This document shows, one piece after another, positions 1,465-31,032 of a stretch of DNA of 36,404 nt (positions are counted from its first letter, which is position 1; each line of letters starts with the position of its first letter). The notes under the pieces are model-generated. The model saw nothing but the letters and a program-made list of their open reading frames with translations. It ran no database searches and was not told the origin of the DNA. A program made the translations under genes and the position numbers. The DNA comes from a virus (taxonomy: Duplodnaviria > Heunggongvirae > Uroviricota > Caudoviricetes): the IMG/VR virus record IMGVR_UViG_2923344815_000003, positions 1 through 36,404 of that record; one strand, 5' to 3'.

Positions 1465-1605
1465 TTACTGCTTACACTGTAAGAACGCCGCAAACTCCGC
1501 TCCCCAGAAGCTCATCCGTATTTCACACAGCGAACCGTGCAGCATCCAGATGATGAGGATTACCGTCACGCAGAACGTGATGGCCGTAAGCGATTTTTGC
1601 GACAT
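1465..1605 (-). CDS. hok: Hok/Gef-family type I toxin (small membrane peptide), 46 aa
   Basis: Hand translation of minus strand: MSQKSLTAITFCVTVILIIWMLHGSLCEIRMSFWGAEFAAFLQCKQ; TM helix followed by SLCEIR...EFAAF signature of Hok family; GGAG RBS upstream; too short to appear in the ORF track. Confidence 0.7.
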   Translation of the reverse strand: MSQKSLTAITFCVTVILIIWMLHGSLCEIRMSFWGAEFAAFLQCKQ

Positions 1606-1794
1606 AGCGCTTGCTCCTTTGTTGGAGAGGCGCTAACCTATCACTTGCTAGGTTGACGGGTTAGGGCCTCGGTTAAACAGAAATGTTTTCCGGGGCCTTT
1701 CCACATCCGGCCTTCGGGTATTCCCTCCGACCATCAGCCGAAAGGCACCCGCACGTAATCTATCGCTTTTTTGTTACTCCGGCAATTCTGCCTG

Positions 1795-2055
1795 TTAATT
1801 CTGAGGTAAAGGCAAACTCATCTGATTGTTTCCCCTGTGTGAAGCTGGCAGCTCATGCCACGGGATACCTTCTGATGAGTGAACGCCGGAGGCGTGTTTC
1901 GATGTGAATTTATGGAAAGCTTCCAGTGTTGAGAAGCATACGCCGCATTCCAGGTTGTTACACTGGTAATACTTTTGCCGCACGGTGTTTGAATCATTTT
2001 CCGGACGACTGGTGCGGATACGGGCAGATGCGCCACAAAGCGGACAACGGAACAT
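1795..2055 (-). CDS. ogr: Ogr/Delta-family zinc-finger late-gene activator
   Basis: MFRCPLCGASARIRTSR...YYQCNNLEC: C-x2-C ... C-x4-C arrangement and N-terminus as in P2 Ogr; AAGGGAGG RBS upstream. Confidence 0.85.
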   Translation of the reverse strand: MFRCPLCGASARIRTSRPENDSNTVRQKYYQCNNLECGVCFSTLEAFHKFTSKHASGVHSSEGIPWHELPASHRGNNQMSLPLPQN

Positions 2056-2097
2056 AGCGACCTCCCTTAACGTGGTGCTGCCGCTATTCTAAGTTGC

Positions 2098-3207
2098 TCA
2101 CTCTGTTTCCGCTATCCATTCCGGGATTTTTGCCTCAAGCTCAAGCTGCGTGGTAAAGCCGCTGTTATCAATGGTGTGCCCGGCTTTTGCAATAATCCAG
2201 TCCTGATTATCAATCTCGCTTTTAAATCCTGTTACCGTGCCATGCATTTCGGGGTAGAGTTCTGCTCGTCCACGTGCCAGCGTGATGGAGAATGATGCGG
2301 CTCCGCGTTGTAGTTGTTGCCACTTTGCCGCCGCTGCGCGTCTTGCTGCCTGCTCGTTCTGATAAGTCTTGCGTAACACAAACACATTGCCTTCCGCGCC
2401 TTCCATATAATCACCTTCACGGCTGCTGCTTTTCTCTTTTTTCGGTTTTGGCGGTTTGCGGCGTTTCACGCTGACTTTTTTCTTTTTCCCGTAATTAAGA
2501 TCAAGCCAGTAAGCGCGTACCCCCGTATACGCTTCGCGGTCAGCAATGCGGAACTGATGGCGATCGCCGCTGCTGCGTGTGATGGCGAACGATGGCAACG
2601 GCTGGCCCTGTGCGTTCACGCCACCGCCGGGCATGATGAATAACAGATTGCCGCTTTTTACCGTGGTGATTGCGCCCAGCATTTCCGCCATGCGCGTAAG
2701 GAAGGACATGTCGCTTTCTTCGGTCTGGTCGGCGTGGTCGATTTCGATATCCATCAGCATTTCGCTGATTTGCGGTTTCAGACCATACCGATGAGCGATG
2801 GCGGATACCACACGCTCAACGGTCACATCATGCCAGGACACCTCACGTTTAACGTTAAATTCATCCCGAAAATCTGCGCTTCTGGCTGAAACAGTCAGCC
2901 TGTCCGGCGGTCCTTCGTGAGCGATTTCATCAACAATGTAAGTGCCTTTTTCTGTCAGCGGTTCTCCTTTCCAGCCAATGAGAACCGTCAGGCGCGCGCC
3001 CCGTGGCGGTAGCAGCAACTGACCATCCGCATCATCCAGCGTGATGGTGAGCTGGTCCGCCTCAAATCCCCGGTTGTCGGTCAGTGACAGGCTCATCAGG
3101 CGCTCTGCCACGCCTGACAGCGTTTTACCCTCCGCGAGAATATCAAAATCCGGCATTTTTACGGGGTCTGTGCCCTGACTGAGCAATTGCATGGTGGTGT
3201 CGGTCAT
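2098..3207 (-). CDS. D: P2 gpD-like tail protein (late control D)
   Basis: Track ORF 2098-3339; likely start at 3207 (MTDTTMQLL...) preceded by AGGGAGGGAG RBS; sequence typical of gpD family. Confidence 0.85.
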   Translation of the reverse strand: MTDTTMQLLSQGTDPVKMPDFDILAEGKTLSGVAERLMSLSLTDNRGFEADQLTITLDDADGQLLLPPRGARLTVLIGWKGEPLTEKGTYIVDEIAHEGPPDRLTVSARSADFRDEFNVKREVSWHDVTVERVVSAIAHRYGLKPQISEMLMDIEIDHADQTEESDMSFLTRMAEMLGAITTVKSGNLLFIMPGGGVNAQGQPLPSFAITRSSGDRHQFRIADREAYTGVRAYWLDLNYGKKKKVSVKRRKPPKPKKEKSSSREGDYMEGAEGNVFVLRKTYQNEQAARRAAAAKWQQLQRGAASFSITLARGRAELYPEMHGTVTGFKSEIDNQDWIIAKAGHTIDNSGFTTQLELEAKIPEWIAETE

Positions 3208-3364
3208 CTGCTCCCTCCCTGTGCGGCATGGTCGCATGTGCGTGCGGAGGGGGTTACTGCTTTTTGTTGTCGCCGTGGCGGGAGAACGGCGCAGGGGTGA
3301 GATTACGCGCGTGGTGGGTGATGATTGTTGCCGAATCATTTAACGGATACAAGGGGCTGAAGCT

Positions 3365-4549
3365 ATGAGTGAAACTCGTTTTCATGGTGCCCGTGTTACG
3401 GAAAATACCGACCTGGTAACAGCGATTAACGATGTTGATTCCAGCGTTATCGGTATCGTGGCAACGGCGGATGATGCGGACGCGAAGCTGTTCCCGCTGA
3501 ACAAGCCCACACTGCTGACCCGCGTCAATGACGTGCTGGGAAAATGCGGGACAACGGGGACGCTTTATCGTGCGCTTAAGGCCATCGCAGACCAGGTGAG
3601 CACAAAGGTGATCGTCGTTCGCGTGGCTGAACACAAAGAAGAAGACGGAAAAACGCAGGATCAACTGGTTATCGGTGGTTCTGAATCTGACGGCAGCTAT
3701 ACGGGGATGTATGCGCTGCTTGTTGCAGAGCAGGATGAAAGCATCGGATACCGTCCGCGTATTCTGGCCGCGCCGGAGCTGGACACGGAGGCGGTAACAA
3801 AATCCCTGTGCGTGATTGCGGGTAAACTGCGCGCGTTTGTGTATGCCTCATGTCACGGCTGTAACACGATGGCTGAGGCGATTACCTACCGCCAGAAATT
3901 CAACGAACGTGAGGTGATGCTCTTATGGCCGGACTTCATCGCCTACAACCCGAAAAGTGGCAAAAACGAAACGTTCCCCGCGCCTGCTTATGCGTGCGGC
4001 CTTCGTGCGTACATTGACCATGAGCAGGGCTGGCACAAATCACTGTCCAACGTTCCGGTTAAAAATGTGCTGGGGATGTCCCGGCATGTGTTCTGGTCGT
4101 TGCAGGCCGAAGACAGCGATGCCAACAGCCTCAATAACAAAGAAATCACGACCATTATTCGTCGCAACGGGTTCCGCTTCTGGGGCAACCGCACACCGGA
4201 AACGAACGCCTACATCTTTGAGGTGTATACCCGAACCGCACAGGTGCTGGCTGATTCAATTGCGGAAGCGCAGTTTGAAACCATCGACAGTCCACTGACG
4301 CCTGCGAACGTGAAAGATGTTATCAGTGCCATCAGGGCAAAACTGGATTCGCTGGTGACTGCCGGGAAACTGATTGGGGCGTCGTGCTGGTATGACGTGG
4401 TGGATAACGGCACCACGGATTTACGTCAGGGACGTGTGCGTATTCGCTACAAATATACGCCCGTTCCGCCACTGGAAGACATGGAGCTTTACCAGACGTT
4501 TACTGATGAATACTTTGAACCCGCATTTGCGGTGCTGGGAGGTGCCTGA
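3365..4549 (+). CDS. FI: contractile tail sheath protein (gpFI)
   Basis: 394 aa, size and sequence character of P2 FI sheath; followed directly by tube gene. Confidence 0.9.
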   Translation: MSETRFHGARVTENTDLVTAINDVDSSVIGIVATADDADAKLFPLNKPTLLTRVNDVLGKCGTTGTLYRALKAIADQVSTKVIVVRVAEHKEEDGKTQDQLVIGGSESDGSYTGMYALLVAEQDESIGYRPRILAAPELDTEAVTKSLCVIAGKLRAFVYASCHGCNTMAEAITYRQKFNEREVMLLWPDFIAYNPKSGKNETFPAPAYACGLRAYIDHEQGWHKSLSNVPVKNVLGMSRHVFWSLQAEDSDANSLNNKEITTIIRRNGFRFWGNRTPETNAYIFEVYTRTAQVLADSIAEAQFETIDSPLTPANVKDVISAIRAKLDSLVTAGKLIGASCWYDVVDNGTTDLRQGRVRIRYKYTPVPPLEDMELYQTFTDEYFEPAFAVLGGA

Positions 4550-5061
4550 TGGCTGTGCCAAAACATCTTCGCTTTTTTACGCTGTTTGTGGATGGTGAAA
4601 ACGAAGTGGGTAAGGTGACGTCCGTCACCCTGCCTAAACTGACGCGCAAAACCGACAGCTACCGGGGTGGTGGCATGATGGGGGCGGTAAGTATTGATCT
4701 CGGTCTGGACGACTCCGCGCTTGATGCGAGCTTTGTCATGGGGGGCGCAGTTCGTGAGCTGTTTCTTAAGTATGGCGGCACGATTGACGGCACGCTGCTG
4801 CGTTTTGCGGGTGAATACTACACCGATGCAGAAAGCGACCTGTATGAAGTCGAAATGCGCGGACGTGTGACGGAAATTGATATGGGGGAAGCCAAACAGG
4901 GCGAAGCCACATCACACACTTACGCCATTAAAAACACCTACTACAAGCTGAGTGTTAACGATCGCCCGTTGTGGGAGATTGACCTGCTGAACTTCATTTA
5001 CCGGAAGGACGGCAAGGACATTGTGCCCGATCGCATCCGTTCCGCGCTTGGGCTTGGCTGA
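4549..5061 (+). CDS. FII: tail tube protein (gpFII)
   Basis: 170 aa; start overlaps FI stop (ATGA-type overlap); P2 FII-like. Confidence 0.9.
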   Translation: MAVPKHLRFFTLFVDGENEVGKVTSVTLPKLTRKTDSYRGGGMMGAVSIDLGLDDSALDASFVMGGAVRELFLKYGGTIDGTLLRFAGEYYTDAESDLYEVEMRGRVTEIDMGEAKQGEATSHTYAIKNTYYKLSVNDRPLWEIDLLNFIYRKDGKDIVPDRIRSALGLG

Positions 5062-5116
5062 TAAGTAATATGCAGGCGGCGCAGTGCGTCGCCTCTGACT
5101 GAAAAGGAGACAACTG

Positions 5117-5491
5117 ATGAAAGACATCGATACTGAAACCCGGAATAACACCGTGGCGGATGATGTGACGGCAGGTGAGGATATGGCTGTCGAACGTGGC
5201 GTAAAACTGACCCGACCAATTGAGCGTGGTGGCGAAAAAATCACGTATGTGGAGATCACCGGGGCTATTGAGCAGGCTGGATCCCTGCGTGGTCTGTCGC
5301 TGTCTGATGTGCTGAATCTGAAAGCGGATACCATGTTTACGCTGTTGCCTCGCGTGACCTCGCCACGACTGGATGAAGTGATGATTAAAAAAATGTCGTC
5401 ACGCGATTTTATTCAGTTGTGCGCTGTGGCTGTAAATTTTATGAGCGAGCCAGACTCTGGCGCGAAGAGCGTGCAGGAGACGGCAGCGTAA
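5117..5491 (+). CDS. E: tail assembly chaperone gpE
   Basis: 124 aa ORF between tube and tape-measure genes, the conserved position of E. Confidence 0.8.
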   Translation: MKDIDTETRNNTVADDVTAGEDMAVERGVKLTRPIERGGEKITYVEITGAIEQAGSLRGLSLSDVLNLKADTMFTLLPRVTSPRLDEVMIKKMSSRDFIQLCAVAVNFMSEPDSGAKSVQETAA

Positions 5492-5655
5492 TCACCCTGG
5501 TGTGCTTTGAGCACATCGAAGATCTGGTGGCGGATATTGCCGCCATTTTTAACTGGTCGCCCGCCGAAATCTTCATGATGACGCCCGGCGAAGTGGTTAG
5601 CTGGCGCGAGCGGGCGGCACTTCGCAGCGGGAATGCAGATAATGAAGACTCTTGA
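5117..5655 (+). CDS. gpE+E' fusion chaperone made by programmed -1 frameshift (predicted)
   Basis: The -1 frame is open from 5389 to 5655 overlapping the E 3' end; candidate slip sites are the A7 run at 5387-5393 and AAATTTT at 5434-5440. Confidence 0.5.
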
Positions 5656-8455
5656 TATCCGGGTCGCTTTCAGCGCCGTTGACAGGCTGACCCGGCCTGC
5701 CGAAAACGCCCGCCGCCTGATGGGGCAGTTTGGTGACTCCATCCAGCGAACGCAGGGGGCGATCAAAAATCTCGAGCGTCAGGCGCGTTCATTTGAGCGT
5801 GCCCGCGACGCTGTCAGTACAGCGGATGCGGGCATCGTGAAAGCACGACGCCAGCTTAACGCCCTTAATCAGTTACAACGCACGGGTACAGTGCTCAGCG
5901 AAAAACAACAAAAGCTGATGCAGCAGTTAAGCACCCGGCTTGAACGCCTGAATGAATCGCGCGCACGGGAAATTCAGAAAATGCGGGAGCTTGGCGGAGA
6001 GCTGAAACGCCACGGCATTTCCCTGACAGGCAGCGATAACACCATCCAGCAGGCCATCAGACGCACCGAACAGTACAACAACCAGCTTGAACGCGAACGG
6101 CAGGCGCTTGCGCGTGTAACGCGGGCGCGTGAGCGGTATTCGCGCTCGCAGGAAACTGCGGGGAAACTGAAAACAGGTGGTGCGCTGGCAACAGGTGCGG
6201 CAGCGGCGGGCGGCTATGCTGCCGGGCGTTTTTTACAGCCCGCGATCGGGTTCGGGAAAGAGATGTCCCGCGTTCAGGCACTGACGCGAATCGACCAGAA
6301 CAGCCCGCAGTTTAAGGCGCTGCGTGAGCAGGCGTTAAAACTTGGCTCTGAAACGCAGTTCACCGCTGGAGATGCCGCCAGTGGACAGGCATTTCTTGCA
6401 ATGGCTGGCTTCACACCACAGGCCATTCAGGCTGCGCTTCCCGGCGTGCTGAGCATGGCAACGGCTGGCGGTATGGATCTCGGCGAGACGGCGGATATTG
6501 GCTCAAATATCCTGACGCAGTTCGGCCTTTCTGCTGACCAGATGGACCGGGTCGGTGACACGCTCACCGCAGCGTTTACCCGTACCAACACTGACCTTCG
6601 CGCACTGGGCGAAACCATGAAATATGCAGGTCCGGTGGCGGGTAAGCTGGGAATATCGCTGGAGCAGGCCGCAGCGATGGCGGGCGTGCTGGCGAATATG
6701 GGTATCAGGGGAAGTGATGCCGGGACGGCAATGCGTGCCAGCCTGGCTCGTCTGGCATCACCGCCAAAGGCGGCAGCAGAGGCGCTGAAAGAGCTGGGTG
6801 TGGCTGTCTCTGACGCAAACGGCAAAATGCGCCCGATGGAGGATGTACTGGCCGACCTTTATAAAGCCACCCGCAAATACGGGGAAGTTGATCGGGTATC
6901 GTTCTTTAAGGACATTGCCGGAGAAGAGGCTTTCACATCATTTATGGCCCTCGTTGATGCGGCAGGTGACGGATCCTTACCTAAACTGAGAAAAGAACTT
7001 GAAGGCGCACGCGGTGAGGCTGAACGCACGGCAAAGGTTATGGCCAACAACCTTGACGGCGATCTGAAATCACTCGGCAGTGCATGGGAAGGGTTGCGCA
7101 TCCGCATTGCAGATCTGATTGACGGTCCGCTGCGTTCTGTCACGCAGTGGCTCACGCGGGTGGTATCAAAGGTGACGGCGCTGGCGCAGGCCCATCCGGC
7201 ACTGACGCGCCAGCTACTGATTGCAGGTGGGGCGTTGCTGGCGATGACTGCAACGGTCGGCTCGTTGTCGCTGGCTATTGGTGTGCTTGCTGGCCCGCTG
7301 GTAAAACTGCGTCTTGGCTTTTCCCTCCTGACCGGATCAATGAATGCTGTCAGGCTCCTGCCAGCACTATGGGGAATGGTGACGGGTTCCGTTTCGTTAC
7401 TGGGGGGCGCTATCGGGGCGCTGCTCAGCCCGGTCGGATTGATTGCTGCTGCGTTTGTGGCTGCGGCGGTTCTCATCTGGAAATACTGGGAACCCATCAA
7501 GGCGTTTTATGCAGGGGTGTTCAGTGGGATTATGGAACGGCTGGCTCCGTTGCGCGAAACCTTTGAACGGTTCGGTCCTGTTTTTGATGTCGTGCGCGAT
7601 GGGATCATTCAGGTCTTTAACTGGTTTAAATCGCTGCTGTCACCGATGGAGTCCGGCAAGGAAACGCTGGATAAATGTACCAGTGCTGGCGAGGTATTCG
7701 GCAGGGTACTCGGTGGAGCGATAGAGCTTGTCCTGACGCCAACAAAAGCATTGATGGATTCACTGGCGTGGATACTTGAAAAGCTCGGAGTGCTTCCGGA
7801 TGAAGCGGAACGGGCGAGAAAGAAAATAGAGAACGCTTCAAAGGCTCCTGTAATGTGGGAATGGGATCCGGTTCTCAAGAAAATGGTTCAGAAACCATGG
7901 ACTCCCGGCCCGGCCCCGTCAGATAAGGTCGACGACAAAAAAGGCGATAAACCCAAAGACAACAAACCGCTCACAGACAACAATACCGGTACGCTGCGCA
8001 GACTCAGCAAAATTGCTGATAACACAGGTAAGCTGGTTGATGAGACGAAAAAACGCATTGGCCCCGGCGATATTGTCTTTAAGAACCTGCCCCGCGCACT
8101 TGCTGTTCGTGGGGAGTGGCAGGAGCGGAAGATTGCGCAGGTCAGTAAGCCTGCCCCCGCAATTAATATCACACCCGTGGTTCCGGCTCCGCTGCCTCCG
8201 GCGCTGGTCCCTGTTGTTGCGGCCAGCTCCCGCCCGGTGGCGGAGGCCATACGATCGCCAGTGGCATCAGTTCCTGCAACTTCCCGTAATCGGGAGCCTG
8301 TTGCCTCCGGATTTGGTGGTGAAATTCATGTTCATCTGCATAACGTTGTTACACAGAATCCCCGCGAACTGGCGAAACTGGTTGGCGAAATGGTCAGGGC
8401 AGAAATGGAACGGCGCGCCCGTGCCGGGCGTGGCAGTTTTTACGATAAAGATTGA
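5633..8455 (+). CDS. T: tail tape measure protein (gpT)
   Basis: 940 aa, coiled-coil rich N-terminus, Gly/Ala-rich hydrophobic middle, position after E/E'. Confidence 0.9.
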   Translation: MQIMKTLDIRVAFSAVDRLTRPAENARRLMGQFGDSIQRTQGAIKNLERQARSFERARDAVSTADAGIVKARRQLNALNQLQRTGTVLSEKQQKLMQQLSTRLERLNESRAREIQKMRELGGELKRHGISLTGSDNTIQQAIRRTEQYNNQLERERQALARVTRARERYSRSQETAGKLKTGGALATGAAAAGGYAAGRFLQPAIGFGKEMSRVQALTRIDQNSPQFKALREQALKLGSETQFTAGDAASGQAFLAMAGFTPQAIQAALPGVLSMATAGGMDLGETADIGSNILTQFGLSADQMDRVGDTLTAAFTRTNTDLRALGETMKYAGPVAGKLGISLEQAAAMAGVLANMGIRGSDAGTAMRASLARLASPPKAAAEALKELGVAVSDANGKMRPMEDVLADLYKATRKYGEVDRVSFFKDIAGEEAFTSFMALVDAAGDGSLPKLRKELEGARGEAERTAKVMANNLDGDLKSLGSAWEGLRIRIADLIDGPLRSVTQWLTRVVSKVTALAQAHPALTRQLLIAGGALLAMTATVGSLSLAIGVLAGPLVKLRLGFSLLTGSMNAVRLLPALWGMVTGSVSLLGGAIGALLSPVGLIAAAFVAAAVLIWKYWEPIKAFYAGVFSGIMERLAPLRETFERFGPVFDVVRDGIIQVFNWFKSLLSPMESGKETLDKCTSAGEVFGRVLGGAIELVLTPTKALMDSLAWILEKLGVLPDEAERARKKIENASKAPVMWEWDPVLKKMVQKPWTPGPAPSDKVDDKKGDKPKDNKPLTDNNTGTLRRLSKIADNTGKLVDETKKRIGPGDIVFKNLPRALAVRGEWQERKIAQVSKPAPAINITPVVPAPLPPALVPVVAASSRPVAEAIRSPVASVPATSRNREPVASGFGGEIHVHLHNVVTQNPRELAKLVGEMVRAEMERRARAGRGSFYDKD

Positions 8456-8461
8456 GGAGTC

Positions 8462-8956
8462 ATGGCCATGATGATGATCTACGGCATGTTTGTTTTTGAG
8501 CTGCGCACATTGCCGCATCAGCAGTTACAGCAAAACAAAAGCTGGCGGCATGTGAAAAATGAACGCGTTAACCGTTCAGCAAGCTGGCAGTATATCGGTG
8601 CAGGTGATGATCGCATCGTGCTTTCAGGCGTGCTTTATCCTGAAATTACAGGTGGCGAAGTGTCGCTGTCGCTGCTGACCACGCAGGCATATACAGGACG
8701 CCCCTGGCCTCTGATTGATGGCGTCGGGCAGATTTACGGCATGTATGTCCTGACCGAAACGAGTACGACCCGCTCTGAATTTGATCGCTACGGTAAGGCG
8801 AAAAAAATAGAATTTTCACTGACCCTTGAACGCTGTGATGAGGATTTGCGGGAGCGTCTGCAATCCTCATCGTTCAGCGATATGCTGTCCGGCTTCAAAG
8901 ATAAAGTGACATCATCTCTTAACAGCGCGGCCAGTTCAGTTAAAGGGCTGTTCTGA
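8462..8956 (+). CDS. U: tail protein gpU
   Basis: 164 aa, MAMMMIYGMFVFELRTLPHQQLQ N-terminus like P2 U. Confidence 0.85.
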   Translation: MAMMMIYGMFVFELRTLPHQQLQQNKSWRHVKNERVNRSASWQYIGAGDDRIVLSGVLYPEITGGEVSLSLLTTQAYTGRPWPLIDGVGQIYGMYVLTETSTTRSEFDRYGKAKKIEFSLTLERCDEDLRERLQSSSFSDMLSGFKDKVTSSLNSAASSVKGLF

Positions 8957-8968
8957 TTTAACACAAAA

Positions 8969-8993
8969 ACCGCTAATGGCCAGATTAGCGGTT
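8969..8993. terminator. bidirectional terminator between convergent U and invertase genes
   Basis: accgctaat / attagcggt stem, T-tracts on both strands. Confidence 0.5.
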
Positions 8994-9575
8994 ATTTTGT
9001 TTACTCTTCTCAATTGTTCCGCTTGATTCTCCTGCGGGGTGGTAACGATAAATCGTCGATGTACCAATGCCGTAAATTATTGCCAGTTGTTTTCTGTCGT
9101 GCCCGTTTTTAATCAGCCTTGCTATTTGCTCATTCTGTTCTATTGTCAGCTTCGGGCGACGTCCGCCTGTGCGTCCTTGTGCGCGTGCTGCTGCCAGACC
9201 GGCCAGTGTACGCTCTACAATTAATTCACGTTCCATTTCAGCCAGGGCACCCATCACGTGGAAGAAAAAACGCCCCATTGGAGAAGATGTATCTATGCTG
9301 TCGGTCAGACTGCGAAAATTAATCCCTCGCTCCCGTAGTTCCCCGACGAGAGAAATCAGATGTTTCATGCTTCGCCCGAGGCGATCCAGTTTCCAGACAA
9401 CCAGCGTGTCACCTTGTTGAAGGCGCTTTAAAGCGCGTTTTAATCCCGGTCGGTCTGTCTTTGTCCCGCTTAATTTATCTTCAAATATTTGTTCACATCC
9501 TGCACAAACAAGAGCGTTTCGTTGCAGGTCTGTATTCTGGTCATTTGTTGATACCCTTACATAGCCAATCAGCAC
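8985..9575 (-). CDS. Gin/Cin/Pin/Hin-family serine DNA invertase
   Basis: VLIGYVRVSTNDQNTDLQRNAL... catalytic Ser region, C-terminal HTH; near-identical in its N-terminal two-thirds to Mu Gin as I recall it; GTG start at 9575 with GGGAGA RBS (track ORF starts 9593). Confidence 0.9.
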   Translation of the reverse strand: MLIGYVRVSTNDQNTDLQRNALVCAGCEQIFEDKLSGTKTDRPGLKRALKRLQQGDTLVVWKLDRLGRSMKHLISLVGELRERGINFRSLTDSIDTSSPMGRFFFHVMGALAEMERELIVERTLAGLAAARAQGRTGGRRPKLTIEQNEQIARLIKNGHDRKQLAIIYGIGTSTIYRYHPAGESSGTIEKSKQNNR

Positions 9576-9629
9576 ACTGAATCTCCCGTCCAAAAGCGCA
9601 AATCATGCCATGCAGGCCAGAAACGGCCA

Positions 9630-9655
9630 TTATCTAAAACCTCGGTTTACAGGAA
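9630..9655. other. gix/cix-like recombination site (left)
   Basis: ttatctaaaacc-tc-ggtttacaggaa: 12-2-12 dyad matching the Gin/Cin crossover-site consensus as I recall it. Confidence 0.7.
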
Positions 9656-9711
9656 ACGGTAAATCAGGCTTCTGGCGCATTACAGAAAAAACAGAACGGC
9701 GCAGATATTCC
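9642..9711. repeat. left arm of 70-bp perfect inverted repeat bounding the invertible tail-fibre segment
   Basis: Reverse complement of 12621-12690 is identical base for base (checked by hand). Confidence 0.8.
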
Positions 9712-10636
9712 CGATAAAAAACTATTCCTGCGTAATATCGGCACAACAAATTCAACAACCATGTCTTTTAGTGGTGGTGCTGGATGGTTCAAACTGGCAA
9801 CTGTAACAATGCCACAAGCCAGTTCCGTGATTTACATAAGCCTGATTGGTGGCGCAGGGTATAACGTTGGCTCCTCGCATCAAGCAGGCATCTCTGAGCT
9901 GGTTCTGCGTGCCGGAAATGGGAATCCAAAAGGTATTACTGGTGCATTATGGCGACGGACATCGGTTGGATTTACTAATTTTGCATGGGTGAATACATCC
10001 GGTAATACCTATGATGTTTATGTTGAAATAGGTAATTACGCCACAGGTGTTAATATTCAGTGGGATTATACCAGTAACGCCAGCGTAACGATTCATACAT
10101 CACCAACTTATACAGCGAATAAACCAACAGGCCTGACAGATGGAACTGTATATGTAATTTACAGTTCGCACATTAAACCGACTGCTGCTGAGGTTGGGGC
10201 GTTGTCATTATCTGGCGGTCAATTGAATGGTGCACTGGGCATCGGAACATCCAGTGCTCTTGGTGGTAACTCGATTGTTTTGGGTGATAATGACACGGGA
10301 TTTAAACAAAATGGCGACGGGTATCTGGATGTTTATGCGAATAACGTCCATGTTATGCGCTTTGTCTCCGGCAGCATTCAAAGTAATAAAACCATAAATA
10401 TTACAGGGCGTGTTAACCCCTCGGATTACGGTAACTTTGATTCCCGTTATGTGAAAGATGTTCGCCTGGGTACGCGTGTTGTTCAATTGATGGCGCGTGG
10501 TGGTCGTTATGAAAAAGCCGGACACGCAATTACCGGATTAAGAATCATTGGTGAAGTAGATGGCGATGATGAAGCCATCTTCAGACCAATACAAAAATAC
10601 ATCAATGGCACATGGTATAACGTCGCACAGGTGTAA
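9644..10636 (+). CDS. alternative tail-fibre C-terminal exon (silent in this orientation)
   Basis: Reading frame open from the crossover site; first 23 codons (LGLQETVNQASGALQKKQNGADIP) identical to the corresponding stretch of H; C-terminus ...INGTWYNVAQV resembles the H C-terminus; track ORF 9761-10636 is the Met-initiated part. Confidence 0.75.
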   Translation, partial: GLQETVNQASGALQKKQNGADIPDKKLFLRNIGTTNSTTMSFSGGAGWFKLATVTMPQASSVIYISLIGGAGYNVGSSHQAGISELVLRAGNGNPKGITGALWRRTSVGFTNFAWVNTSGNTYDVYVEIGNYATGVNIQWDYTSNASVTIHTSPTYTANKPTGLTDGTVYVIYSSHIKPTAAEVGALSLSGGQLNGALGIGTSSALGGNSIVLGDNDTGFKQNGDGYLDVYANNVHVMRFVSGSIQSNKTINITGRVNPSDYGNFDSRYVKDVRLGTRVVQLMARGGRYEKAGHAITGLRIIGEVDGDDEAIFRPIQKYINGTWYNVAQV

Positions 10637-10639
10637 ATT

Positions 10640-11167
10640 ATGCAGCATTTAAAAAATATTAAGTCAGGAAATCCAAAAACAAAAGAGCAATATCAGCTAA
10701 CAAAGAATTTTGATGTTATCTGGTTATATACAGAAGACGGTAAAAACTGGTATGAGGAAGTAAATAACTTTCAGGACGACACCATAAAGATTGTATACGA
10801 CGAAAATAATATTATTGTCGCCATCACCAAAGATGCCTCCACGCTTAACCCTGAAGGTTTTAGCGTTGTCGAGGTTCCTGATATTACCGCCAACCGACGT
10901 GCTGATGACTCAGGTAAATGGATGTTTAAGGATGGTGCTGTGATTAAGCGGATTTATACGGCTGACGAACAGCAACAACAGGCCGAATCACAAAAGGCCG
11001 CGTTGATTTCTGAAGCTGAAAGCGTTATTCAGCCACTGGAACGCGCTGTCAGGCTGAATATGGCGACGGATGAAGAGCGTAGCCGACTGGAAGCATGGGA
11101 ACGCTACAGTGTTATGGTCAGCCGTGTGGATACGGCAAAGCCCGAATGGCCACAAAAGCCTGAGTAA
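10640..11167 (+). CDS. alternative tail-fibre assembly chaperone (silent partner)
   Basis: 175 aa, N-terminus [22 protein letters not shown] nearly identical to the convergent chaperone at 11196-11729. Confidence 0.8.
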
Positions 11168-11172
11168 AAATT

Positions 11173-11192
11173 AAGGCCCGATATCGGGCCTT
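11173..11192. terminator. palindromic hairpin between convergent assembly-chaperone genes
   Basis: aaggcccgat / atcgggcctt perfect palindrome. Confidence 0.45.
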
Positions 11193-11195
11193 CTC

Positions 11196-11729
11196 TCATT
11201 CTGGTTGTTCGGGAAACGTTACTGGCAAGCTGGAAGTGTCTGTAGATTCGACTTTCTGCGCAAAGAGCATCCACTCTGTTAATTTTTGTTTATTCTCGTC
11301 GGAAATGATGCCCAGCCGTAGCTGTGAGTCCCATAGCTGGGTTTTATCCCTGACGAGCTGTAGCAGGCTTTGCTTTTCATTTTCCGCCTGCTGCCTCTGC
11401 TCTTCCTCGGTATAAGTTCGCCTTACCACTACGCCATCTTTGAACATCCATTTACCCGAAATATCAGCCCGGCGATTTGCTGTAATATCAGGAACCTCAA
11501 CGACGCTTGCGCCTTCTGGATTAATTGCTGAAACATCCTTTTCAATACAAATAATAACGCCGTTACGGTCATAGACCATTTTCAACGTATCAGGCTGAAA
11601 GTTCTTTTGTTCCTCATACCAGTTTTTTCCATCATCTGAATAAAGCCATTTGATGTTAAATTGCTTTGTTAGCTGGTATTGCTCTTTTGTTTTAGGGTTG
11701 CCAGCAGTAATATTTTTTAAGTGCATCAT
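11196..11729 (-). CDS. tail-fibre assembly chaperone (expressed copy)
   Basis: 177 aa, immediately downstream of H on the same strand. Confidence 0.85.
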   Translation of the reverse strand: MMHLKNITAGNPKTKEQYQLTKQFNIKWLYSDDGKNWYEEQKNFQPDTLKMVYDRNGVIICIEKDVSAINPEGASVVEVPDITANRRADISGKWMFKDGVVVRRTYTEEEQRQQAENEKQSLLQLVRDKTQLWDSQLRLGIISDENKQKLTEWMLFAQKVESTDTSSLPVTFPEQPE

Positions 11730-11731
11730 AA

Positions 11732-14098
11732 TTAAATACTCCCCGCGTTATACCACGTTCCATTAATGCAATACTGAATTGGCCTTGCCTGAGTTGTATC
11801 AATTAATTCATCACGGTTTCCGTTAACTGAACCCGTAACGACATAACCTGACCTGTCAGACCAGCCGGGACCATTCCATGTCTGAACAGATGACAGACCG
11901 CCCAGGCGAATACCTGTAATAAACCTTGAGTTACATTCTGCCTGCGTATATGCACCAACATCCCCCGCAGAGGGTTTGCGGGTTGTGGTGTAAAACTCTG
12001 ACCAGTTAGCTTCAAAGCCATAACCATCACGCGCTGAACGATAAAAGATACCGCCGTTTTTATAATTCACGCGGAACTGTACAGCAGGGCAACTCCCCGC
12101 ATTCATATTAAAGTGGAGGATTAATGTCGATGCGCCACTGATATCTGCATCATAAACGCCGCTATTCCAGTTCCAGCCAACAGCTTTATCATTTGCAACC
12201 CTGCTTCCTGTTTGCCCTAAAGCAAATGCAGGCTGCTGGTTTTTCGTGTTGTAGTCTCGTCGCCAGCCAGGAGCATAAGCATCACCATGATTAATATAGG
12301 TGAATTGAGCGTTAGTAATTCCGCCGCCGCTGGACGTACTCGCCGTAGTAACGCGTATGGTCATTGCGCCGCGAGTGCCAATAACTTCCACCACTGCACC
12401 TGCAAGACAAATATTTCCGCAACCTGTATCTGTAATGACCTTATTGTTTGCATAAGCCCATGAGCCTTTGCACATCCAGTAAGGATGGTTAAATGCCCCC
12501 TGACTCTCCAGCCACGAAATGAATTGTGCGGTTGTCCAGGTCTGACTATCGCCACCAATATTCAGCCATGCGCTATATGCGCGGCAGGCACCAATATTTT
12601 TGGTGAAGGTATCTTTTCCCGGAATATCTGCGCCGTTCTGTTTTTTCTGTAATGCGCCAGAAGCCTGATTTACCGTTTCCTGTAAACCGAGGTATTCGAT
12701 AACAGCGGCAACGGTCGATTTCGCAAGAATATCCCGCCCGACTTTTGTCAGGGTTGCCAGGCTGGCGACATCATTCCCCGTAAAATACGGAAACCTGTCT
12801 GCCGCAGTAGCAAGCCCGGCCAGCGCCGTCAGGGTGGCATCTTTCGGTTGCTTACCCGCAAGCGCGTTAGTCATGGTGGTCGCAAAATTCGGGTCGTTGC
12901 CCAGCGCCGCCGCCAGCTCGTTCAGCGTATTCAGTGCGTCAGGCGACGAGTCTACAAGTGCGGCAATCGCGGCCATCACATAAGCCGTGCTTGCGATCTG
13001 AGTATTATTAGTCCCTTTTGGCGCAGTTGGCGTTGTTGGCGTTCCGGTCAGCGCAGGACTGTTTAAAGGCGCTTTCTTGTTCGTTTCATCCATTACCGCC
13101 TTAACCGCTTTCGGTGTCGCGGCCAGTGTTTCAGACGTGCTGTTGGTGGCACTACTGAGCTGGACTATCCCTTTTTGTGCCGTCGTGGCGTCCTGAGCGG
13201 TATATTTTGCGTTAGCAAGGTCATACGCGGCCTTTACTGCTTTCGGCGTTGCAGCCTGCGTTTCAGACGTGCTGTTGGTGGCGCTACTGAGCTGGACAAG
13301 GCCTTTTCGCGTCGTGCTGGCATCCTGCGCAGTATATTTTCCGTTAGCAAGGTCATACGCGGCCTTTACTGCTTTCGGCGTTGCAGCCTGCGTTTCAGAC
13401 GTGCTGTTGGTGGCGCTACTGAGCTGAACTATCCCTTTCCGCGCAATGGTAGCGTCCTGTGCGGTGTATTTGCCATTAGCCAGGTCATATGCTGCCTTTA
13501 ATGCTTTCGGCGTTGCAGCCTGCGTTTCAGATGTGCTGTTAGTGGCGCTACTGAGTTGAACAAAGCCTTTTGCGGTCAGCGAGGCGTCCGGGTGACGTCG
13601 TGACCGTTCATGCTCTTTCAGTTTGTCATCCACGTAATCCACTGTGGCCATCACCATGGTGTTATCCACGGTAAGCGCCACGGTGGCAGTGCTGGATACG
13701 GTCAGAATGGTGCGAAACGTTTGTGCACGACCGGACCCTTCGGCAACGGCTGGCTTGTAACTTTCGGCAGTATTGCCCACCGCGATTAAATCGCCGTGCT
13801 CATCAAATACACCAATTTCCCGGATCCAGAATCCGCCCGTTTCAGGAGGAATAACCAGCTCCGCAATAATGCGGTTCTGATGTGTTGCGTCCAGGATGAC
13901 GCGATTAACAGTGTGTCGCCACACCTCATGCACCAGACGGGTCTGCTTACTGTCTGGTGTGGGCAACGTGCCGCCACCGTCGCCCACGGCCATATGAGTC
14001 AGGCAGACAGGCTTACCATCTGGCGCGGCTGCCTGCGCTAATTTTTTTGCACCCGTATCGGTGATAACGGTTTTAAATTTTCGTGTTGTGGTACTCAT
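11732..14098 (-). CDS. H: tail fibre protein gpH (constant N-terminal part plus currently joined variable C-terminal part)
   Basis: 788 aa; conserved P2 H-like N-terminus; four tandem ~40-aa fibre repeats; gix-like site inside the gene at 12677-12702. Confidence 0.9.
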   Translation of the reverse strand: MSTTTRKFKTVITDTGAKKLAQAAAPDGKPVCLTHMAVGDGGGTLPTPDSKQTRLVHEVWRHTVNRVILDATHQNRIIAELVIPPETGGFWIREIGVFDEHGDLIAVGNTAESYKPAVAEGSGRAQTFRTILTVSSTATVALTVDNTMVMATVDYVDDKLKEHERSRRHPDASLTAKGFVQLSSATNSTSETQAATPKALKAAYDLANGKYTAQDATIARKGIVQLSSATNSTSETQAATPKAVKAAYDLANGKYTAQDASTTRKGLVQLSSATNSTSETQAATPKAVKAAYDLANAKYTAQDATTAQKGIVQLSSATNSTSETLAATPKAVKAVMDETNKKAPLNSPALTGTPTTPTAPKGTNNTQIASTAYVMAAIAALVDSSPDALNTLNELAAALGNDPNFATTMTNALAGKQPKDATLTALAGLATAADRFPYFTGNDVASLATLTKVGRDILAKSTVAAVIEYLGLQETVNQASGALQKKQNGADIPGKDTFTKNIGACRAYSAWLNIGGDSQTWTTAQFISWLESQGAFNHPYWMCKGSWAYANNKVITDTGCGNICLAGAVVEVIGTRGAMTIRVTTASTSSGGGITNAQFTYINHGDAYAPGWRRDYNTKNQQPAFALGQTGSRVANDKAVGWNWNSGVYDADISGASTLILHFNMNAGSCPAVQFRVNYKNGGIFYRSARDGYGFEANWSEFYTTTRKPSAGDVGAYTQAECNSRFITGIRLGGLSSVQTWNGPGWSDRSGYVVTGSVNGNRDELIDTTQARPIQYCINGTWYNAGSI
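12621..12690. repeat. right arm of 70-bp perfect inverted repeat
   Basis: Reverse complement equals 9642-9711. Confidence 0.8.
12677..12702. other. gix/cix-like recombination site (right), inside H
   Basis: ttcctgtaaacc-ga-ggtattcgataa. Confidence 0.7.
13100..13590. repeat. four tandem ~120-bp repeats inside H (tail-fibre repeat domain)
   Basis: Protein repeat VQLSSATNSTSETQAATPKAVKAAYDLANGKYTAQDA x4; DNA units nearly identical. Confidence 0.8.
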
Positions 14099-17544: not shown

Positions 17545-17821
17545 GGTTGTTGTCCTCGTTGTTCAGTCGTTGCAGCCTGCGCTGTTCCAGTAATTCAATG
17601 GCCCGTTTATCCGCGTTACAGGTTTCCAGTGCATCCAGAAGGCGGTCGCCCCATATACCGAGATTTCCCCATGTGGGAGTGTCAGGGAAGGGGGGAGGCG
17701 TTACCGGTATGGTCAGCGTCTGCGGTATAAGCCGGACTGACGGCGCTGGCCGTGGCGCGTTCTGCGTGCCTGCGCAACCTGTCAGTAAAACGAGCGTCAG
17801 GCAAAGCGTGGGCGCATTCAT
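17531..17821 (-). CDS. o-spanin lipoprotein (LysC/Rz1-like), embedded in the i-spanin gene
   Basis: MNAPTLCLTLVLLTGC lipobox, Pro-rich body; out-of-frame overlap with 17682-18089. Confidence 0.6.
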   Translation of the reverse strand: MNAPTLCLTLVLLTGCAGTQNAPRPAPSVRLIPQTLTIPVTPPPFPDTPTWGNLGIWGDRLLDALETCNADKRAIELLEQRRLQRLNNEDNNHAEN

Positions 17822-18089
17822 CTTTTGCAATATCGTTGCGTAGCTGTTCACGTCTGGCCTCTCCGTCCTGATTGCGTTGCTGATTTTCCGCGCGGAGTTG
17901 TGCCAGCACCTGCTGCATATCCTGTACCCCGGCGCTGATGATATTCAGGGTGTCGACGGTACTTTTCAGGGTGCTGGCCTGCGCTTCGTTTCTGGCGTTC
18001 TCCCGGCCCAGTGACCACGACAGACGCATGGATGCTCCCCAGGCGGCAATCAGAAGAAAAGCGACGCCCAGCGTGGGCCAGAGCTTCAT
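17682..18089 (-). CDS. i-spanin (LysB/Rz-like)
   Basis: Start MKLWPTLGVAFLLIAAWGA (N-terminal TM) overlapping endolysin stop (ATGA); coiled-coil body. Confidence 0.6.
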   Translation of the reverse strand: MKLWPTLGVAFLLIAAWGASMRLSWSLGRENARNEAQASTLKSTVDTLNIISAGVQDMQQVLAQLRAENQQRNQDGEARREQLRNDIAKDECAHALPDARFTDRLRRHAERATASAVSPAYTADADHTGNASPLP

Positions 18090-18478
18090 GCCGGATAAAC
18101 TCCGTGCGGTAACTGAAAATGCGGTCCGTCTTTCAGGGTCTTCCAGTCGCCGCCCCATTCCACCGGAATATTCAGTTCCCGGCTGGCCTGTCTGAATGCT
18201 GCTGCGATTTTTTCGTACAGCGGCCATTCCCATGACACCTGGCTGCCGACATAAGCCACAACATCCACGGCATGCCCCGTAAGGTGGCGGCTGTTCATGG
18301 TCTGGCTCTTACCCGTGGCCACAAGTTGCTTCTGGCGGTAACGGCTGCGCAACCCTTCGGTGATACCAAAATCCACTTCCGAAATTTCCAGTGCCCGTCG
18401 GGTCACTTTCACCAGCTCAGGATTTACGCCCTGCAAATTCTTTTCGCTCCGGCTGCTGAATTTAAATGTGTTGCTCAT
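18086..18478 (-). CDS. endolysin, peptidase M15 (VanY-like L-Ala-D-Glu peptidase) type
   Basis: 130 aa with HLTGHAVDV zinc-binding-like motif; located between holin and spanins. Confidence 0.65.
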   Translation of the reverse strand: MSNTFKFSSRSEKNLQGVNPELVKVTRRALEISEVDFGITEGLRSRYRQKQLVATGKSQTMNSRHLTGHAVDVVAYVGSQVSWEWPLYEKIAAAFRQASRELNIPVEWGGDWKTLKDGPHFQLPHGVYPA

Positions 18479-18798
18479 TCGTCCTTCTCCTTCACCCTGC
18501 GATTAAAGGCCGCAATAACCTTGTCGCGTGCTTTCTCTGCCCCCATAAAACCGATTGATGCGCCGATAAACGTCACGGCATCTTCAGGAAAACCGAAGAA
18601 GCGCAACGACCCGGCCACGGCCATGGCGAGAACGCCGCACGCCAGCGATCCCGTTACGGTCTGAACCAGTGTTCGTCCGTCATAAAGACTCATCAGCGCG
18701 GAAATGCTGACCGCCGCGCCTGCTGCATACACCGTTGGCAGGTGGTCAAAGAGCCATGCAATAACCTGCTCTGTGATCCCTGTTTGAATGGTGTTCAC
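18475..18798 (-). CDS. holin
   Basis: GTG start at 18798 after GGGGGAG RBS; two or three hydrophobic helices, charged C-terminus (RRVKEKDE); track ORF extends artificially to 19017. Confidence 0.6.
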   Translation of the reverse strand: MNTIQTGITEQVIAWLFDHLPTVYAAGAAVSISALMSLYDGRTLVQTVTGSLACGVLAMAVAGSLRFFGFPEDAVTFIGASIGFMGAEKARDKVIAAFNRRVKEKDE

Positions 18799-18800
18799 TG

Positions 18801-19001
18801 CTACTCCCCCCACAACTGAATCATTTCTCGTTTCTTCTTCTCCGGCTCCGGCATCTCCACGTCCTGCCCGGCGTCCAGAAATACCTGCTGACAGAGTCCG
18901 GGGTTGGCATCCAGCACCTTTTCGGTGACGCCCTGCGTCGTGCCGTAGTACCGGAAACAGAGCGAATCCACGGTGTCGCCTTCCAGTGCCTTCACTTTCA
19001 T
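18801..19001 (-). CDS. X: tail protein gpX
   Basis: MKVKALEGDTVDSLCFRYYG... 66 aa, P2 X-like; start overlaps L stop. Confidence 0.8.
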   Translation of the reverse strand: MKVKALEGDTVDSLCFRYYGTTQGVTEKVLDANPGLCQQVFLDAGQDVEMPEPEKKKREMIQLWGE

Positions 19002-19504
19002 CAGCACAACTCCGCAAAGATTCGCGGGCGGCACAGAATGTCAGAGATGGCCCAGCTCACATCGCGCCACAAATCTGATGTCTGTATATCCAGTGCGTCC
19101 GCCCGGCGGTCGCCCTTGTCCGTTGTGTCCGCATCGCGGTAACGCTCCAGAATCAGGGCGCGTGTGGCGGTATAAACAGCATTGCGCCAGTGCCAGAGAT
19201 TGACGCTTTCTCCGTTAATTACGGGTGCCGGAACATCGGCCAGCGTCTGATGGCCAGCCGCCTGCTGTTCCTGCTGCCATGCTTCCAGCTCGCGGGTAAC
19301 GTGAGCCACCGCCCCGGTGGCGGTATGCAGCAGGCGGGAGGTGGTCACACGGCCCGGCAGTCGTACCGCCAGACGCAGCTCACGCAGCACAATATCCGGC
19401 CAGAATGCGCCCGCTGAAATACGGGTATCACCATCATCGGTATCGGTGATGTCGTCCTCTGCGGGTCCGGGGTTGGTTCTGGCAACCATACTCATGGGGT
19501 TCAC
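19001..19504 (-). CDS. L: head completion/stabilisation protein gpL
   Basis: 167 aa, conserved position. Confidence 0.85.
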   Translation of the reverse strand: MNPMSMVARTNPGPAEDDITDTDDGDTRISAGAFWPDIVLRELRLAVRLPGRVTTSRLLHTATGAVAHVTRELEAWQQEQQAAGHQTLADVPAPVINGESVNLWHWRNAVYTATRALILERYRDADTTDKGDRRADALDIQTSDLWRDVSWAISDILCRPRIFAELC

Positions 19505-26740: not shown

Positions 26741-26744
26741 TGGT

Positions 26745-30960: not shown

Positions 30961-31032
30961 TGCGGCAATCCTCTTGTTACAGATGTGCGAAGGCCTCCCG
31001 CCGCAAGGTGCAGGAAAGGCCCGGAACAGGAA

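Follow-up and report, generated by a model that had tools for sequence, protein, structure and literature searches.

The inverted FI-U tail gene block of a P88-like prophage is an old, fixed clade trait with a predicted two-way late promoter

The window analyzed here (the whole stretch of 36,404 nucleotides, IMG/VR record IMGVR_UViG_2923344815_000003) is a P88-like (Xuanwuvirus-type) P2-family prophage adjoining a Gly-Cys-Leu tRNA cluster, and its tail genes FI, FII, E, T and U are inverted relative to D and ogr. The inverted block is confirmed. As an old trait, fixed throughout a clade, it is an ordinary arrangement, neither a new nor an active rearrangement. We explain it, with a probability of about 0.8, by a fixed inversion of FI-U in the P88-like clade combined with a late promoter region in which one shared activator box would serve transcription in both directions. 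This explanation builds on the observed gene order, its distribution and fixity, and the conservation and spacing of promoter motifs; its predicted parts are the sites where transcription starts, binding by Ogr, read-through from D into ogr and an origin in a single event.

Gene content and order of the tail region

Gene identities were assigned from PHROGs profile matches of the open reading frames in the window. Homologues of all seven genes of the P2-type tail operon (FI, FII, E, T, U, D and ogr) lie together in the window, and each was also matched when the window proteins were searched against the P2 record with tblastn. The minus strand carries ogr (1795-2055), D (2098-3207) and, from 11732, H and the baseplate genes, whereas FI-FII-E-T-U form a plus-strand block of 5592 bp (3365-8956). 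Our gene calls and strands agree with the initial annotation, which had placed FI-U opposite D, ogr, H and an adjacent invertase. In P2, FI-FII-E-E'-T-U-D is one co-directional seven-gene operon transcribed from pF, and U overlaps D. The window has no such single unit with U abutting D; it has an inverted FI-U, a separate start region for D and a terminator after U. Re-inverting approximately 3208-8984 would give back the canonical order, as the initial annotation had proposed for roughly 3340-8980 and as comparison with P2 and Fels-2 confirms.

The block opens with the tail sheath gene FI (3365-4549; PHROG 23, E=5e-127), followed by the tail tube gene FII (4549-5061; PHROG 55, E=8e-60); the PHROG label of the latter is "head closure", and its homologue in E. 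coli ETEC-2264 is annotated as the major tail tube. The tail chaperone gpE (5117-5491; PHROG 103) has an overlapping E' frame (ORF 5419-5655), and annotations of relatives include a GpE-family E' gene. The tape measure protein gpT (5633-8455; PHROG 28, E=5e-214) and a gpU-like tail protein (8462-8956; PHROG 76, E=5e-75), the final gene of the block, complete the series.

On the minus strand, D encodes a gpD-like tail/baseplate hub protein of 369 amino acids (PHROG 52, E=9e-166), and PF05954 is recorded in its homologues. The open reading frame reported by the ORF finder (2098-3339, 413 amino acids) is over-extended. The true start is the ATG at 3207, which is preceded by the ribosome-binding site GGGAGGGAG; both the start codon and this site are invariant in an alignment of 42 relatives, and the PGAP start of D in ETEC-2264 is the same ATG. 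Because D starts there, the divergent D/FI gap measures 157 bp (3208-3364), close to the roughly 160 bp initially estimated. The ogr gene encodes an ogr/Delta-type zinc-finger late activator of 86 amino acids with a CX2C-X24-CX4C pattern (PHROG 603, E=4e-15). Its translation was compared with P2 Ogr, and PGAP labels the homologue in ETEC-2264 "ogr/Delta-like zinc finger family protein". From our reading of the sequence, TAGAAT at 2086-2091 (minus strand), in the 42-nt spacer between D and ogr, is possibly a -10 element of ogr's own; this candidate parallels the ogr promoter annotated between D and ogr in the P2 record.

The inverted order is shared by a clade and fixed in it

The phages closest to the window are P88, phiSM and P884B11, at approximately 95-96% nucleotide identity: P88 is 94.7% identical over 80% of positions 1500-12000, and phiSM and P884B11 are 96% identical over 77% of the same region. 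P88 and other Xuanwuvirus members, including Citrobacter phage phiSM/Shae_phiSM, have identical order and strands for ogr, D, FI-U, the invertase and an invertible fibre segment. They differ from the window in their fibre-segment alleles and, in some relatives, by IS100 insertions; the 124-amino-acid gpE allele of the window is shared with phiSM but not with P88. Further away, records of the Salmonella phages SEN4/5 (Senquatrovirus) and of Klebsiella Reginaelenavirus share the divergent D/FI arrangement and the inversion of FI-U, although their D proteins are only 63-70% identical to that of the window, they lack the invertase and their fibre modules are different.

Among the loci fetched for comparison, where the genome-contig sample was selected by two D peptide patterns and may have overlooked distant relatives of different gene order, the inverted order was found in 49 loci from about 20 Enterobacterales genera, with D identity of at least 63% in every case. 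The canonical order was found in 42 loci, which include P2, Fels-2, Wadgaonvirus and Gegavirus, and there D identity was at most 53% throughout; the Enterobacterales comparators among these amount to 4 loci. The inverted set is monophyletic in neighbor-joining trees of D, FI and U, built on tblastn segments with midpoint rooting.

The initial annotation had left the rearrangement open and possibly active, with misassembly as another possibility. Neither idea survives the comparison with related prophages, which reveals a stable lineage feature accompanied by a candidate D promoter, the outcome that the initial annotation itself had named as refuting. The D/FI junction is intact in 1,357 of 5,426 complete E. 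coli genomes and the U/invertase junction in 620, all assembled independently of this record, and separately sequenced phage genomes, among them P88, phiSM and SEN4 for the D/FI junction, contain both; an assembly artefact of this record thus deserves next to no credence. Conversely, a synthetic re-inverted U-D junction was found in none of the 1,412 E. coli genomes carrying these genes, and the same order prevails in all 49 loci with D identity of 63% or more. The arrangement is compatible with a functional phage: P88 (PMC6456863) and phiSM (PMC5285337) are active temperate phages, and SEN4/5 form plaques and have myovirus morphology (PMC5261728).

Annotations of P88, phiSM, SEN4, ETEC-2264 and a Reginaelenavirus record show this strand pattern too. 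The inverted order is already known in this sense, from deposited annotations only, since we found no description of the gene order in the literature (searched by genus name and by wording for opposite orientation, and including the P88 and SEN4 papers).

The adjacent invertase acts on a different segment

A Gin/Cin/Pin-type serine DNA invertase (PHROG 125, E=1e-95) is encoded on the minus strand immediately beyond U (8985-9575; the open reading frame extends to 9593), and its start, judged from sequence, is probably the GTG at 9575. Its abutting the block, together with the restoration of P2/Fels-2 order upon re-inversion, could suggest that FI-U is an active or recently flipped segment, moved by this invertase or another recombinase and present in both orientations in populations. 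However, the invertase has a substrate of its own: a 3.07-kb invertible tail-fibre segment at 9630-12702, whose ends are 89-nt inverted repeats, 94% complementary, with the gix sites in them. The segment is approximately 92-94% identical to the P1/P7/D6 segment and 91% identical to that of the Mu-type phage D108, and it belongs with the segments of the Gin/Cin/Pin/Hin systems (Mu G, P1 C), whereas the FI-U block does not. The only gix sites in the window are those at 9630-9655 and 12677-12702 (chance expectation, 0), so that neither end of the FI-U block has one. Between 3150-3420 and 8900-9050, no exact inverted match exceeds 7 nt, which is chance level: in 300 shuffles, this length came up more often than any other. 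The initial annotation had likewise seen no inverted repeat or gix-like site at the breakpoints.

Phyletic distribution points in the same direction. The block keeps one orientation across some 20 genera, and the invertase is missing from most loci with the inverted order; in Fels-2 and Wadgaonvirus, on the other hand, an invertase is present alongside the canonical order. Both junctions, moreover, hold putative regulatory elements that suit only this orientation, and the clade conserves them. Taken with the absence of the alternative junction from the E. coli genomes, this makes a switching or recently flipped block very improbable. The invertase is unrelated to the FI-U block; its real substrate is the fibre segment.

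The pre-inversion layout of the window is represented by two other P2-like phages, Fels-2 (Felsduovirus) and Escherichia phage 500465-1 (Wadgaonvirus), whose Cin/Gin-type invertases are 73-77% identical to that of the window. In both, the invertase is followed by a co-directional FI-U-D-ogr, and in Fels-2 the invertible fibre segment lies between H and the tail module.

A bidirectional terminator at the U junction

The U stop (8956) and the stop codon of the convergent invertase (8985-8987) are separated by 28 bp, the distance initially reported. A terminator scan of both strands identified a bidirectional intrinsic terminator here (8968-8993; an A-run, a 10-bp stem and a T-run), which was also recovered as an inverted repeat in the window. 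A stem of at least 8 bp lies shortly 3' of U in most relatives, often with A-rich and T-rich ends, and its sequence is usually unrelated. The 3' boundary of U is also a mosaic joint: many E. coli relatives cease to be homologous no more than a few bases from the U stop, and different cargo and fibre modules lie beyond it.

One box between two predicted divergent late promoters

The initial annotation reasoned, correctly, that D, cut off from the FI operon, would need its own promoter and called for a search upstream of it. A generic sigma-70 scan found no promoter in the D/FI gap, as expected for activator-dependent late promoters. Comparison with relatives gave a different outcome: the gap contains a conserved Ogr-type box and, on the D side, a candidate -10 element. 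The comparison set consists of 42 distinct D/FI gaps from relatives.

The box, GTTGT-N12-AGAAC (3266-3287; core from TGT at 3268-3270 to AGA at 3283-3285), has one mismatch to TGT-N12-ACA, the consensus for P2 late promoters (cited in PMC3931495). It became recognizable only when the D/FI gap was set against the O/P gap and both against relatives. An exact scan of the window for TGT-N12-ACA gave two matches, at 24827 and 25566; both lie outside late intergenic regions, and chance alone would give more. A scan allowing one mismatch gave 155, which is uninformative alone. The longer form TGT-N12-AGAAC, by contrast, occurs in just two places in the window, the D/FI and O/P gaps; there is no third such box in the window, and an equivalent of the P2 pV promoter was not located. 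Among the 42 relatives, the box has the form TGT-N12-AnA in 40 and is a perfect TGT-N12-ACA at the aligned position in 16. At the annotated pF and pO/pP activator sites of P2, the left half of the box and the N12 spacing match those of the window.

On the FI side, a predicted -10 element GATGAT (3320-3325, plus strand) would set a transcription start near 3332, and on the D side a predicted extended -10 element, TGcGACCAT (3228-3236, minus strand), would set one near 3221. Both hexamers (GACCAT and GATGAT) are weak in the window, but their spacing is highly constrained. The box lies exactly 40 nt from the FI-side -10 in all 42 relatives, and 40 nt from the last base of the D-side -10 in 39, with 39-41 nt in all; in SEN4, the same box has spacings of 39-40 nt. 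Elsewhere in these gaps length is variable, with leaders of 59-68 and 70-80 nt. In the alignment of relatives, TG, A2 and T6 of the D-side element are conserved, the TG invariably so.

The -10-like hexamers, 40 nt from each box end, would place the starts approximately 55 bp from the box center. The same mirror geometry is seen in the O/P gap of the window and has a direct parallel in P2, whose record (NC_001895) shows one activator site for the divergent promoters pP and pO: their starts, at 3016 and 3127, are each 47 nt from the ends of the site (55.5 bp from its center), which leaves 40 nt to the expected -10. In P2 the design is confined to the capsid/terminase genes; in the window, a second copy of it is predicted to drive tail genes. 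The predicted O-side transcription start would fall inside the called ORF of O, but from P2 gpO homology and a ribosome-binding site, the ATG at 22356 is the more likely start of O. Based on these sequence comparisons, one box (3268-3285), with Ogr as its putative ligand, is predicted to be common to the divergent D and FI late promoters.

D might instead be driven by a promoter independent of the box, lying within the start of FI or being of the extended -10 type that needs no Ogr, in which case the box would serve FI only. Extended -10 promoters can function without an activator, and the D-side element carries the invariant TG of that class; the predicted D leader is also very short, about 14 nt. 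On the other hand, an unlinked promoter needs no fixed distance to the box, and that distance is 40 nt in 39 of 42 relatives while the neighboring segments vary in length; the D-side spacing also mirrors both the FI side and the pP/pO geometry of P2. We thus regard an independent D promoter as unlikely and favor the shared box.

Origin of the arrangement

The simplest history would be an ancient inversion of FI-FII-E-T-U relative to P2/Fels-2, occurring once, in the ancestor of a large clade of Enterobacterales Peduoviridae. A single origin is likely rather than certain, because canonical Enterobacterales comparators are few and the trees are midpoint-rooted neighbor-joining trees on tblastn segments. 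A relocation of D/ogr in place of a flip of FI-U was set aside as a separate hypothesis, as on a circular phage genome the two are the same event. The FI-U block would have taken its late promoter region along when it was inverted, and it is by bringing this region that the inverted arrangement could work. The inversion would also have put the Ogr binding box of the FI promoter, which is dyad-symmetric, beside the 5' end of D, so that one box, with a -10 element 40 nt away on each side, may yield two divergent late transcripts. That of FI-U would run from near 3332 to the bidirectional terminator at 8968-8993, and that of D from near 3221, probably with read-through into ogr.

A different history, in which a foreign FI-U cassette with its own promoter and terminator recombined into the locus in the opposite orientation, would fit the mosaic joint at the 3' boundary of U and the varied cargo and fibre modules beyond it. 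However, D, FI and U show similar divergence from P2 (49%, 45% and 47% identity, respectively) and each yields the same monophyletic inverted clade; therefore, there is no sign of a separate history for the block. In addition, the FI-side promoter geometry fits the canonical PF regions of Enterobacterales relatives, where 40 nt separate the box from the end of a -10-like hexamer in 500465-1, Gegavirus and Fels-2 (about 41 nt in P2). Module replacement is therefore quite improbable, and inversion of the resident block is the history that we prefer.

Significance

A switch, a recent rearrangement and a misassembly can all be discarded as readings of the inverted tail block, which closes a false lead. 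The block is instead a stable marker of the clade formed by P2-like phages of the P88, SEN4 and Reginaelenavirus types, and the divergent D/FI junction, which about one in four complete E. coli genomes carries, can be used as a synapomorphy to classify Peduoviridae prophages. The layout also accounts for recurrent annotation errors, namely the over-extended D ORF and the small "hypothetical" ORFs called in the promoter gap. The conserved geometry, with 40 nt on each side of the box, offers a testable case in which one Ogr site may serve two divergent late promoters beyond pP/pO.

How the D-side breakpoint was tolerated invites a further proposal, to which we give an even chance: a one-way FI late promoter may have become a two-way one, mirror-symmetric about a single Ogr box, which would have rescued the breakpoint by creating a short D-ogr unit activated by Ogr itself. 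In P2, late transcription of ogr needs read-through across the whole 6.6-kb F operon. If the proposal is true, the positive-feedback loop between Ogr and D-ogr would be tighter than that of P2, and these phages would provide a natural example of regulatory-site co-option making a large operon inversion viable.

Gene layout of the prophage

The window carries an almost complete prophage of the P2 family, which lies between a Gly-Cys-Leu tRNA cluster (152-454) and its own integrase (35403-36404). PHROG searches identified an ogr-type regulator (1795-2055) and a gpD-type tail protein (ATG start 3207) on the minus strand; sheath FI (3365-4549), tube FII (4549-5061), gpE (5117-5491), tape measure T (5633-8455) and gpU (8462-8956) on the plus strand; and a serine DNA invertase on the minus strand (8985-9593 as called by the ORF finder). 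Also on the minus strand are H (fibre) and the genes for baseplate, lysis and capsid, as far as O; P and Q are encoded on the plus strand. The ORF finder's 413-aa version of D (to 3339) is over-extended: ATG 3207, with GGGAGGGAG ahead of it, is invariant across 42 aligned relatives and is the D start in the PGAP annotation of E. coli ETEC-2264. With the D start thus corrected, the distances in the initial annotation hold: the divergent D/FI gap is 157 bp, the U and invertase stops lie 28 bp apart, and the plus-strand block spans 5.6 kb. Its reading of the block as inverted relative to P2 was borne out by comparison with P2 and, more directly, with Fels-2, where H, the invertible fibre segment and the invertase are followed by co-directional FI-U-D-ogr; by this comparison FI-U alone is flipped in the window.

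Distribution of the inverted order

Phage P88, Citrobacter phage phiSM (Shae_phiSM) and Xuanwuvirus P884B11 share ~95-96% identity with this region, and the P88 and phiSM annotations have the same strand pattern as the window. A D-protein alignment was used to scan one genome per GTDB species, and flanks were classified by tblastn. All 41 Enterobacterales loci with D identity of at least 66% have J-I-H on one strand and U-T-E-FII-FI on the other, followed by D and ogr; genera with this order include Salmonella, Trabulsiella, Symbiopectobacterium, Edwardsiella, Kluyvera, Serratia, Erwinia, Enterobacter, Mixta, Pantoea, Kosakonia, Citrobacter, Pectobacterium, Izhakiella, Brenneria, Klebsiella, Raoultella and Yokenella. 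All 39 loci in which D identity is at most 48% (Orbus, Burkholderia, Paraburkholderia, Duganella and others) show the canonical co-directional order. Among named phages, SEN4 (Senquatrovirus, D 63%) and a Klebsiella Reginaelenavirus record (D 70%) share the inversion with the window, whereas the canonical order is seen in P2, Fels-2, Wadgaonvirus 500465-1 and a Gegavirus (D 49-53%). Adding the named phages brings the totals to 49 inverted and 42 canonical loci, and the inverted ones are monophyletic in neighbour-joining trees of D, FI and U. Phages carrying the inverted order are functional: P88 (PMC6456863) and phiSM (PMC5285337) are active temperate phages, and SEN4/5 form plaques and have myovirus morphology (PMC5261728). 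Deposited phage genomes that have been annotated and classified already show this arrangement; literature searches found no paper explicitly discussing this gene order.

Two loci deserve separate mention. In Trabulsiella odontotermitis (2200-11100 of the fetched locus), H and I are on the strand opposite to that in every other inverted-clade locus, and the best match to D begins at residue 208 and so spans no more than its C-terminal part, ~780 bp from FI, which points to an additional rearrangement or insertion near an invertase gene. A record labelled as the Gram-positive Vagococcus sp. WN89Y (NZ_JBQPOM010000071.1) contains, on one contig, a copy of the present enterobacterial tail region with proteins ~91-100% identical to those of the window, suggesting a contaminated or mislabelled assembly.

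Fixity in E. coli

A probe of 801 bp spanning the D/FI junction, with a match threshold of at least 80% of its length, matched in 1,357 of 5,426 complete E. coli genomes, E2348/69 and EC958 among them (over 95% of its length in O157 records). The U/invertase junction is intact in 620 complete genomes, including UTI89; in many others, homology ends a few bases from the U stop, with different cargo beyond (an acetyltransferase and a fibre-assembly gene in O157:H7 PA20). When the hypothetical re-inverted junction, the U 3' end joined co-directionally to the D 5' end, was used as a query, its halves were joined in none of the 1,412 E. coli genomes matching either half. With intact junctions and no joined re-inverted halves, neither an assembly artefact nor a flip-flop is visible anywhere. 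The initial annotation left the mechanism open; that reading, or one of a possibly active rearrangement, is refuted by the criterion it set itself, since relatives share the arrangement. We regard the FI-U inversion as a trait fixed across the lineage (probability about 0.97), as opposed to something that occurred in this genome.

Insertion sequences have often damaged related prophages: D is truncated by IS30 in O157:H7 PA20 (locus coordinates 3362-9357), and an IS100 element lies between T and U in ETEC-2264 (17575-19376 of its locus) and in phages 520873 and 503458.

Invertase and block boundaries

The 26-bp gix-type site, the crossover site of Gin/Cin-type serine invertases, occurs in the window only at 9630-9655 and 12677-12702 (zero expected by chance), inside 89-nt inverted repeats (94% complementary) that bound a 3.07-kb tail-fibre segment (9630-12702). 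This segment is ~92-94% identical to the invertible segment of P1/P7/D6 and 91% to that of Mu-type D108. When the two ends of the FI-U block are compared, no exact inverted match exceeds 7 nt, the commonest length among shuffles, in agreement with the earlier statement that the breakpoints lack an inverted repeat or gix-like site. The invertase is present in only 6 of the 41 inverted Enterobacterales loci, and block orientation and invertase presence vary independently, all four combinations occurring among loci. The invertase acts on its own fibre segment, and the FI-U block carries no recombination scars. In the present orientation H (11732-14098) runs through the right-hand gix site, and an alternative fibre C-terminus and chaperone (9761-11167) lie on the opposite strand. 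The invertase start is most likely GTG 9575 (MLIGYVRVST...) rather than the ORF finder's TTG 9593.

Between U and the invertase (8968-8993), a 10-bp stem flanked by an A-run and a T-run was scored as a terminator for either strand. In most relatives of the inverted clade, a stem of at least 8 bp occurs soon after U; its ends are often A-/T-rich and its sequence is usually unrelated. Such a pattern fits selection for termination at a convergent junction that doubles as an exchange hot spot for fibre modules.

Other elements of the prophage

Rfam matches above the gathering score to C4 antisense RNA (31320-31407, minus strand, 80 bits) and isrK (31443-31517, minus strand, 70 bits) lie inside an Ash-like ORF (30957-31574) of the early region; together they look like a P1/P7-type antisense immunity element within a P2-like prophage. 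A ParM/StbA actin-like segregation ATPase and its Plasmid_stab_B partner (26429-27704, minus strand), adjoining the gpA replication gene (27781-30588), make up a partition module of the plasmid type, here in a P2-like prophage that is integrated; annotation of the E. coli O157:H7 remnant shows it too. Between tRNA-Leu and ogr lies a toxin gene of the hok/gef family (~1465-1605, minus strand; position transferred from the ETEC-2264 PGAP and P88 annotations); Rfam sok had no match in the window at the gathering threshold.

A proposed shared late promoter region

The N-terminus of D is unconserved, alignments to P2 and most relatives outside the P88 group beginning at residues 13-19, which fits a breakpoint at the U/D boundary, where U and D overlap in P2 and Fels-2. 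The initial annotation rightly anticipated that D would need its own promoter, and a conserved candidate is present in the D/FI gap: a box (a putative Ogr-type activator site; consensus TGT-N12-ACA) with a predicted -10 element on the D side. The gap carries GTTGT-N12-AGAAC at 3266-3287; the only other TGT-N12-AGAAC in the window is in the O/P gap (22429-22448). Across 42 distinct D/FI gaps aligned from relatives, strong conservation is confined to the box, one -10-like hexamer per side, the start regions and the ribosome-binding sites. The box reads TGT-N12-AnA in 40 of 42 (perfect TGT-N12-ACA in 16). All 42 have the end of the FI-side hexamer (GATGAT in the window; GATTAT, GAATAT or GAACAT elsewhere) exactly 40 nt away from the box, and the D-side extended -10, TGnNANNAT (TGcGACCAT in the window, 3236 to 3228, minus strand), ends 40 nt from it in 39 and 39-41 nt in all, while leader lengths vary (59-68 and 70-80 nt). 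The FI-side spacing is also 40 nt in 500465-1, Gegavirus and Fels-2, whose PF regions are canonical, and ~41 nt in P2.

This geometry has a precedent. In the P2 record, one shared 'activator binding site; pO, pP promoters' is entered at 3057-3087, between divergent starts at 3016 and 3127, and the pO and pP starts are each 55.5 bp from the centre of TGT-N12-CCA; 40 nt to the -10 corresponds to 47 to the start, the annotated pP/pO geometry. In the window, the O/P gap has the same one-box mirror layout as the D/FI gap (TGcCATCAT, 41 nt, box, 40 nt, TAATCT) with O (scaffold) starting at ATG 22356, which P2 gpO homology and a GAGGGG ribosome-binding site favour over the probably wrong ORF start at 22389. 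An exact TGT-N12-ACA at 25566-25583 (plus strand, TGTTGTATCTCTGCGACA), one of only two in the window, lies downstream of Q in a low-GC stretch without a recognised gene family; it may be a late promoter for cargo or a chance match. Small 'hypothetical protein' ORFs are called within the D/FI promoter gap in P88 (gp50, 2529-2660 of the fetched locus) and SEN4 (SEN4_27, 8800-8952); these and the D extension to 3339 are probably annotation artefacts over a regulatory region.

In the simplest model, the inversion moved pF, dyad box included, next to the D 5' end, where a -10 at the mirror position would have turned the box bidirectional. Predicted starts are ~3332 for FI and ~3221 for D, the latter with a predicted 14-nt leader containing the ribosome-binding site. 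The ogr gene follows 42 nt after D with no terminator between, and the spacer contains a -10-like hexamer, TAGAAT, paralleling the ogr promoter of P2. Judging from conserved sequence and spacing, it is likely that the shared Ogr box drives both the D and FI promoters. We infer a single-box, mirror-symmetric bidirectional late promoter, modestly new in that it would be a second case of the P2 pP/pO design.
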